A stretch of DNA of 29,922 bases from a virus. Below, in pieces: positions 369 to 2,282 of this stretch. Numbering within the stretch: the stretch's first letter is position 1; every line of letters begins with the position of its first letter. The notes under the pieces are model-generated. The model was not told the origin of the DNA and made no database searches. It was given only the letters and a program-made list of their open reading frames with translations. The translations under genes and the position numbers were made by a program. The stretch lies in UHGV virus genome UHGV-1480788. One strand, given 5' to 3'.

Positions 369-2282
369 TTATGGCATATTAACAATAATAAATGTGTCCT
401 GTATCACGGACATCTGAGCGTTACCTCCTGTTATTGTTACATAAATATATCTATTTGATGTTAACCTTCCTTTCCAGTCTATTCTGGCAGTAGTTCTACT
501 GCTTGCTGTAGATTTGTGGTACACAATAGATAAAGTCGATCCTGTGTCAGTAGGTGAACTTGCACTTTTAATTGCTATTGTTACAGCCTGATCAACAGCT
601 GGGAATGTAATACTTGCACTTATCTCATAAATTCCGGGCACTGCTGTTCTTACGTATCCTGTATTTTGTGCCTGAAGATAACGGTCATCTGAAGAAGATA
701 ATGTATTAAAGGGCACTACACCTGTATATGTGCCAGTGACATTAACTCCGCGGAGAACAACGTTTGGCGGATAAAGGCTCTCTATCTTCATTACTCCGTC
801 ATACACCGAGGTGTCGGAAGCTATATTTGAGTAAGCGAACCTCATATCTGTTCCTGAGAACTTAAGATATGAATCCCCTGTAACCTTGTAAAAGTCAAGG
901 AAGTACCCCGAAGCCGCAGTAACCATATAACCACCATTTACAGTTACGTTCGCGTTACCACTGACCTCAAATAATTTTGCTCCTACATTTGTTGGTGTAC
1001 CTCTAATACCAGCGGTAGCTTGAGGCCCATTTATTACCGTAGACCCGCCACGGTTCACAGCGGTACTGTCGTTTACTATCTTGAAAAACCCACCATACAG
1101 GTTTTCGGTATACGGCGTGTTAAGTACCAAGTCATTGCAGTTTATTAACTCAAAAACATACGGTACATTGCTTGAAGAAGATGGTTTGTTTACCGCCTCA
1201 CCGCCACAAGAGGTCATGGTTGTATGTTCACGGTTAACCATTCGCCACGCACATCGATAAAAAATTGATGTTACGTTACTGATTGTCCCGGAGGTTCCGG
1301 AAGTATACACCCCAGGGTCTTCGAGCTGATAACATGGAAGGTCTGAGTATTCCTGAGCACCAGATGGGGCATACCAATAGTTGCAATAGATTTTCTCCCA
1401 CACATGTGCGTATGCATCATAAGTGCGAATCCCTTGCTTAAAACCATAGAACATGCAGTTTTTAACGATATGGTGCGCCCAAAAAGGAGCGAATATTGCG
1501 TAATCGCACTTATCATTTGTGTTTATACGCAGACCATCTATGACGTTGCGGAGAGAAAAACCATTTTCTGGATGAACTACTATGATAGCAGCATCAACAT
1601 TGAAATCCGTGGTTCTGCCACCGCGTGCTGGAGCCGTTACGGACGGTAGTGATGGTGTCGCGTTGCCCGTTTTAGTCAATACATGTGCGCCGAAACAATA
1701 AAGCCTATCGGTGGAGTACATAATGATGGGGTTAGTATACGTCATGTCTGTATCCACAATAACAGGAAGCCCTTTTCCTCTGGCGAATGCTAACGCTGAG
1801 TTTATAGGGTCGGTTTCATATGCAAACTCGCTTATTCTCACTCCGTTTGCATATTCAAGAAAATCAATGTTTTCCTGAACTGTTTTACCATTAGTTGTTC
1901 CAATTATCCCAGCACCTACGTTAGCTTCAAGTTCTTGTCTTAGCTGATCCGGATCATACTTCAGAACATTCGGGAAATAGAACTGCTGCGCACCGTACGC
2001 ATCATAAACAGCCATAGAATGGCCTTGCACAGTTACGAATTTGGCAATCTGTCCGTTATATACCGGATATCCAGCAGCGTTAATGATTATTGGTTGCGAA
2101 ACAGGAACGTGAGAACCGTCTTCGTTTTCCACATAAACCTGAATCTGGTTTTCAGGATTCACCGGGTCAGTGTCAATTTTACCGATATAAATTTTGCCAT
2201 TGGCAACCGCTTTAAAAGAACGCGCCATAGTGAAGAGTTGCGAAGGCATGCTTACCACAACATTTGCGGTGATATCTGACAT
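369..2282 (-). CDS. Tailspike protein: P22-family head-binding N-terminal domain plus a divergent receptor-binding domain
   Basis: N-terminal ~115 aa ([11 protein letters not shown]...[19 protein letters not shown]...[13 protein letters not shown]...NVLKYDPDQ) matches the P22 gp9 head-binding domain from memory; the rest does not resemble P22 gp9. Start moved from ORF-track 2330 to ATG 2282, which is preceded by GGAG. Last gene of the late operon. Confidence 0.9.

Follow-up and report, generated by a model that had tools for sequence, protein, structure and literature searches.

A P22-type tailspike of an Escherichia coli podophage joins a conserved particle anchor to a rare, uncharacterised receptor module with a TNF/C1q-like cap

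The tailspike gene of a P22-like phage genome, of which a stretch of 29,922 nucleotides (hereafter named the window) was analysed, encodes a chimeric protein of 637 amino acids in which a P22-type anchor is followed by an unrelated receptor module (Table 1). This module is a rare and uncharacterised E. coli tailspike specificity module with a TNF-like cap. The reading that we favour, with a probability of roughly 0.6, is that the spike of this HK620/Sf6/Gally-like temperate E. coli podophage is a trimeric hydrolytic endoglycosidase of the O-antigen, in which Glu362 and Glu393 are candidates for the catalytic residues. The head-binding domain would plug the spike into the tail hub, and the short neck would be the place where recombination joins the modules. 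The beta-helix would bind the O-antigen polysaccharide of the host and cleave it as a hydrolytic endoglycosidase, by means of the Glu362/Glu393 pair on adjacent rungs, and a TNF/C1q-like trimeric knob would cap the spike. The receptor cassette, which spans the sequence between the head-binding region and the hairpin past the stop codon, would have been acquired horizontally and would set the serotype to which the phage adsorbs.

Table 1. Position of the tailspike gene and of its features in the window.
Feature	Position	Strand	Remarks
Tailspike gene	369..2282	-	637 codons plus stop; stop codon 369-371; ORF listing, translation
Shine-Dalgarno GGAG	2290..2293	-	7 nt 5' of ATG 2282; read in the sequence
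P22-type head-binding (particle-anchor) domain, aa 1-113	1944..2282	-	PF09008 and PDB sequence matches
Neck/linker, aa 114-149	1836..1943	-	Holds the anchor/receptor recombination junctions; low pLDDT
Right-handed parallel beta-helix, aa ~150-500	783..1835	-	Putative polysaccharide-binding/catalytic domain
Glu362 (GGE motif)	1197..1199	-	Candidate catalytic carboxylate; codon verified
Glu393 (TEN motif)	1104..1106	-	Candidate catalytic carboxylate; codon verified
TNF/C1q-like jelly-roll knob, aa ~501-637	372..782	-	Probably trimer cap, possibly an extra carbohydrate-binding site
Hairpin, 12-bp stem	321..352		Terminator-like; 17 nt after the stop codon; terminator scan

According to the ORF listing, the minus-strand reading frame extends over positions 369 to 2330. 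ATG 2282 was taken as the true start, and ATG 2330 was ruled out, because the product then aligns, from its first residue on, with the N-termini of the Sf6 (gp14) and P22 (gp9) spikes and because of the placement of the GGAG ribosome binding site. The GC content ranges between 0.37 and 0.44 within the tailspike gene, the lowest value (0.37) being that of the neck/linker, versus 0.51 in the adjoining gp16-like gene.

The Pfam search identified the PF09008 (Head_binding) domain at aa 1-113, which aligned with positions 1-113 of the 113 in the profile (E 4.4e-67). In the PDB sequence search, Sf6 gp14 matched aa 1-119 of the tailspike (E 7e-65), and the head-binding domain of P22 gp9 matched the N-terminus with ~74-75% identity (1lkt, E 4e-45; 2vky, E 2e-51). 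The DNA of this region is 88-95% identical to that of HK620, Sf6, CUS-3, Gally and IME10, as well as to that of over 1,100 prophages of E. coli, the similarity ending abruptly at gene nt ~339-358. The head-binding domain was poorly modelled in the full-length AlphaFold2 prediction (pLDDT 25-50) and, hence, its assignment rests on the sequence matches to solved structures. Residues 47-168 of PDB entry 6tgf, a bacterial 'exopolysaccharide biosynthesis protein', also matched the head-binding domain (E 1e-8), which indicates that the P22-type anchor domain occurs in a cellular protein.

From aa ~119 onward the situation is different. No P22, Sf6 or HK620 chain was matched by the C-terminal 523 aa in a phmmer search of the PDB, even with E values of up to 10. 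The preliminary description, which was made from the sequence alone, had given the gene the coordinates 369-2282 and a length of 637 aa, had assigned the first ~115 residues to the P22 gp9 head-binding domain and had regarded the remaining ~520 residues as unlike P22 gp9. Homology and the ribosome binding site confirmed the former; the latter two assignments agree with the PF09008, 1lkt, 2vky and Sf6 gp14 matches and with the end of the PDB matches at aa ~119. The chimeric architecture proposed there was also corroborated, since the anchor DNA is nearly that of the HK620/Sf6/Gally types and the rest is dissimilar to their receptor domains. The Lederbergvirus spikes (P22 gp9, Sf6 gp14, HK620 gp9 and CUS-3) have in common with this protein the head-binding domain (74-90% aa identity), the position of the gene after the injection proteins and the general plan of anchor, neck, beta-helix and C-terminal, probably trimeric cap. 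They differ in that no sequence likeness to P22, Sf6 or HK620 was found past aa ~119 and in the cap, which is here a TNF/C1q-like jelly roll, whereas those of P22 and Sf6 are an interdigitated beta-prism or beta-sandwich. Among the Lederbergvirus characters, PF09008, the late-operon position and the beta-helix were present, but sequence homology to the P22, Sf6 or HK620 receptor domains was not.

Outside the cassette, the window corresponds to a P22-like genome, with an identity of 95-97% to those of Gally, HK620, N7 and their relatives. The tailspike gene comes after ejection genes of the gp7/gp20/gp16 type, a gene for a putative lipoprotein of unknown function and a Mnt/Arc-type repressor gene, and the gene order with Pfam labels on two contigs (L001 and L002) places it last in the late operon of a P22-like genome. 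Homology to Gally covers gene nt -13 to 358 and resumes at window positions 1-352 with 87% identity, everything between having been replaced. As judged from these alignments, the exchangeable cassette extends from gene nt ~358 to the hairpin at 321-352, which is its downstream limit. On the longest contig with an identical gene (L001, from ENA), 430 nt separate the tailspike from the end of the prophage (L001 positions 11915-12344; window 1-368), which adjoins torT-torR-torCAD-cbpMA. The tor-side flank of this prophage is 98.8% identical to E. coli and adjoins torT, which indicates that the host is E. coli and that insertion took place at the torS/torT attB. The torS/torT intergenic attB is the integration site of HK022, and integration has been reported to rewire the regulation of torCAD (TMAO respiration) (PMC6814406).

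The identical protein is present on three public contigs, all of them metagenome or read-archive assemblies, and the 99%-identical cluster of the tailspike protein contains 34 members. The gene has been found in prophage or metagenome contigs only, and in no isolated phage, as would be the case if it were a relic in a decaying prophage that no longer serves an infectious phage. We regard this as very improbable, given that the ORF is intact and preceded by a good ribosome binding site, that the full set of morphogenetic, lysis and replication genes is present and 95-97% identical to those of viable phages, that the protein recurs in the contigs and cluster mentioned above, and that the predicted structure was modelled with confidence.

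Several other observations were made in the window. Many P22-like phages match it from position 222 onwards. A short reading frame on the plus strand (222-306), ending in HAQYLDKRREMMQWWADWLDEKVE followed by the stop codon, lies between the tailspike and the prophage end, and we take it to resemble the C-terminal end of an integrase. A Mnt/Arc-type ribbon-helix-helix repressor gene (2371-2670, plus strand) is divergent from the tailspike; no antirepressor gene (ant) adjoins it, while locus L006 has arc, mnt and a P22_AR antirepressor. Between the Mnt-like repressor and the gp16-like ejection genes, an ORF on the plus strand (2705-3226) with an internal start, MKKSLLIIPLLLVGC (lipobox), matches phrog_6067 (function unknown) and is also found in Gally. 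It is a candidate for a prophage-expressed lipoprotein, e.g. one of superinfection exclusion. Finally, a strongly negative AT skew (-0.32) was found at 12001-13500, over the scaffold/portal region on the minus strand, which is probably an effect of codon composition.

The receptor module turned out to be rare. An exhaustive HMMER search of 1.84 billion cluster representatives yielded 20 matches to it at E<=1e-3, with six at E<=1e-30. Neither megablast nor blastn matched the receptor part to any of 5,426 complete genomes of E. coli, which left no lysogen among them from which to infer the serogroup of the host. No match to the module was obtained in the GTDB species-representative genomes, either with the single protein or with an alignment of eight sequences. 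In IMG/VR nothing was found with the single protein, and five distant loci only (29-39% identity) with the alignment. NCBIfam holds no model for the spike, nor for the acyltransferase that neighbours it in relatives. Within 50,697 phage records, none was more than 40% identical to the receptor module; the best ones were the spikes of the Kuttervirus phages BSP101, heyday, moki and FrontPhageNews, to which tblastn aligned 98% of the query with 39-40% identity. The other relatives from isolated phages were those of Edwardsiella phages KF-1, IW-1 and ETP-1 (30%) and of one Acinetobacter phage (23.5%). No characterised tailspike was identical over the full length, which the preliminary description had named as the result that would contradict it; the best phage record reached 40% and the best structure 20-23%.

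The BSP101-type spikes of Kuttervirus (Ackermannviridae) and the metagenomic spike P0004 are homologous to the receptor module over its whole length and belong to the same phrog_25325, which matched aa 1-504 of the 523-aa query at profile positions 111-608 of 631 (E 3.6e-126). The anchor of the BSP101-type spikes, in contrast, is not the P22 head-binding domain, but PF18668, that of a branched myovirus spike complex. In the available text of a survey of Ackermannviridae spike subtypes, the BSP101-type spike stands under no assigned receptor (PMC8432352).

The alignments place the same receptor module behind four different anchors, and the swapping is directly visible in them. The P22 head-binding anchor precedes it in the window, in P0001 and P0002, in P0003 of E. 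fergusonii and in relatives from Proteus and Morganella (44-99% aa identity). The N-terminal anchor of Kuttervirus tailspikes (PF18668) does so in P0004 and loci L003 and L004 (87% aa; 92.8% nt over gene nt 406-1742). An anchor of the SPN1S/epsilon15 type, 83% identical to that of SPN1S in P0005, is found in this protein and in locus L005, with a module 70% identical in both aa and nt. A siphophage tail-fibre anchor from ~45-kb E. coli phages was found in P0007 (module 59% aa). The junctions fall in the neck: the homology to Gally and HK620 stops there at nt ~339-358, and that to L003 and L005 starts at nt 406 and nt 366, respectively. It is well established that phages of different genera exchange receptor domains as modules (PMC10408124, PMC8432352).

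The module of P0002 (locus L006) is 86% identical in aa to that of the window and 95-100% identical in nt across most of the beta-helix. P0002 and P0005, the latter from a Uetakevirus-type prophage, have the same module, and differ from the window in that the C-terminal 170-250 codons are only 52-68% identical in nt and in a gene encoding a 387-aa Acyl_transf_3 protein located directly downstream and convergent to the tailspike (L005 10250-11413 and L006 8544-9707, both on the minus strand, with an epsilon15-like and a P22-like backbone, respectively). The copies share 87% identity, and their identity to OacB, the O-acetyltransferase of Sf101, is 29%. Spikes specific for the O-antigen classically have such a gene as their seroconversion partner, and this one probably serves for O-antigen acetylation (seroconversion) matched to the spike. 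Unlike L005 and L006, the window does not contain an Acyl_transf_3 gene.

An AlphaFold2 monomer model was built from 25 family members. The prediction was confident from residue ~150 to the C-terminus, with block pLDDT values mostly of 85-95. The best agreement in Foldseek was with 24qi (E 6e-13), the gp86 depolymerase of Acinetobacter phage Belisarius (released 2026-03-25), which is also the sole solved chain with a sequence match to the receptor part (E 1e-12, 23% identity, aa 138-495) and the closest solved structure, with 20-23% identity to that part. The literature search yielded no paper on Belisarius gp86. The spikes of AS12 (gp42, 6eu4) and CBA120 (TSP2) were the second- and third-best structural relatives, respectively. 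Belisarius gp86 and AS12 gp42, 18-23% identical to the module, have another anchor and another host. The composition of aa 116-637 (T 10.2%, V 8.6%, G 8.6%, S 8.0%, A 7.9%, N 7.1%) is in agreement with the residue pattern that had initially been described as compatible with a beta-helix in the C-terminal part. The 24qi and Foldseek matches upheld this reading for aa ~150-500, but not for the last ~135 residues, which form a jelly roll; neither this knob nor the mosaicism within the receptor module figured in the preliminary description.

Two glutamates of the helix, Glu362 and Glu393, are invariant in the 25 family members, and both align to Glu in Belisarius gp86 despite an overall identity of 23%. 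They are 31 residues apart, i.e. about one helix rung, and on the strength of this conservation may form a catalytic pair. A Pfam scan with E values of up to 1 found PF09008 as the only domain in the tailspike, with no SGNH/GDSL esterase domain (PF13472). PF13472 is present in other E. coli P22-type spikes and would therefore have been detected in this one. An esterase spike of the SGNH/GDSL type was rejected for this reason, and so was a C-terminal intramolecular chaperone/protease domain, since Pfam finds nothing beyond PF09008.

Beta-helix spikes can also be lyases, and this counts against a hydrolytic activity. Hydrolysis is suggested here by analogy with the AS12 glycosidase and CBA120 TSP2, by the conservation of the two glutamates and by the lack of an esterase or any further Pfam domain. 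The AS12 spike is a hydrolytic glycosidase with a capsule as its substrate (PMC8092837), and CBA120 TSP2 is described in the available text of PMC7506556 as the determinant of O157:H7 specificity. It is distinctly unlikely, in our opinion, that the beta-helix is a polysaccharide lyase acting by beta-elimination or a binder that does not cut. The hydrolytic nature of AS12, the nearest relative with checked chemistry, argues weakly against both, as does the conservation out to Belisarius gp86 of two glutamates instead of the Lys/Arg/His base that is typical of lyases.

As regards the substrate, the usual targets of enterobacterial spikes and the O-acetyltransferase-like gene linked to two relatives point, again by analogy, to the O-antigen. 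In E. coli and Salmonella, the O-antigen is the target of the characterised P22-like and epsilon15-like spikes and of most spikes of Kuttervirus, according to the available text of PMC8432352 and PMC10408124. Two facts were counted against an O-antigen substrate, namely that the closest solved relatives are taken as capsule-cutting, which is documented for AS12 (PMC8092837), and that the acyltransferase partner is absent from the window. The receptor module could alternatively be a capsule depolymerase, acting on the K-antigen, the group 4 capsule or another exopolysaccharide. This is unlikely in view of the targets of the characterised enterobacterial spikes and of the two relatives paired with a seroconversion-type gene. 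With either polysaccharide, it is reasonable to expect, as the preliminary description did, an O-antigen or capsule specificity and an activity different from those of the P22-type spikes.

The C-terminal knob has the jelly roll with TNF topology that defines the fold of the TNF/C1q-like superfamily. Its structural neighbours were CD40L and TL1A (score of 14.6), the C1q heads (13.9) and BclA (13.4), followed by the distal domains of cyanophage tail fibres and a TNF-like lectin of Photorhabdus (10-11). Proteins with the TNF/C1q-like fold are trimers and, hence, the knob is well suited to cap a trimeric tailspike at its C-terminus. As judged from this cap and from its family, the tailspike is probably a homotrimer. 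A TNF/C1q-like distal knob is also common to the tail fibres of cyanophages A4 and A-1(L), the Bdellovibrio fibres and BclA, with no detectable sequence similarity. In those fibres the knob follows a fibre shaft, whereas here it follows a putatively enzymatic beta-helix.

The 3'-terminal third of the gene (window 372-1000) contains sharp recombination breakpoints, and its last 170-250 codons diverge from the related alleles. Compared with the P22-type allele L006 (P0002), the nucleotide identity is 95-100% up to gene nt ~1300 and 52-68% thereafter, and compared with the Kuttervirus-type allele L003 it is 89-99% up to gene nt ~1600 and 58-75% thereafter. The breakpoints, at gene nt ~1300-1400 and ~1600-1700, respectively, thus lie near or within the knob. 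Because of this, and because TNF-like lectins and fibre tips are among its neighbours, the knob might recognise carbohydrates as a second module that is exchanged independently, in which case a catalytic helix would be combined with interchangeable lectin tips, but we hold this to be highly doubtful. The 3' end may instead have been swept along on gain or loss of the downstream acyltransferase cassette, without selection on the knob. A direct origin of the 3' end of P0002 from the epsilon15-type allele with the acyltransferase was rejected, as the two are only 65-75% identical there. This low identity indicates that the donor was a related, unsampled allele.

Tailspike modularity as it is understood is unchanged by this case, which is an ordinary example of the known swap between anchor and receptor modules. 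It is, at the same time, a clean natural one: the module has moved between temperate podophages and a Kuttervirus-type anchor with 92.8% nucleotide identity, and the transfer is recent. The case enlarges the known range of tailspike specificities in E. coli by an uncharacterised and rare receptor-binding module, and modules of this kind are useful as serotyping reagents, for engineered host ranges and in depolymerase discovery.
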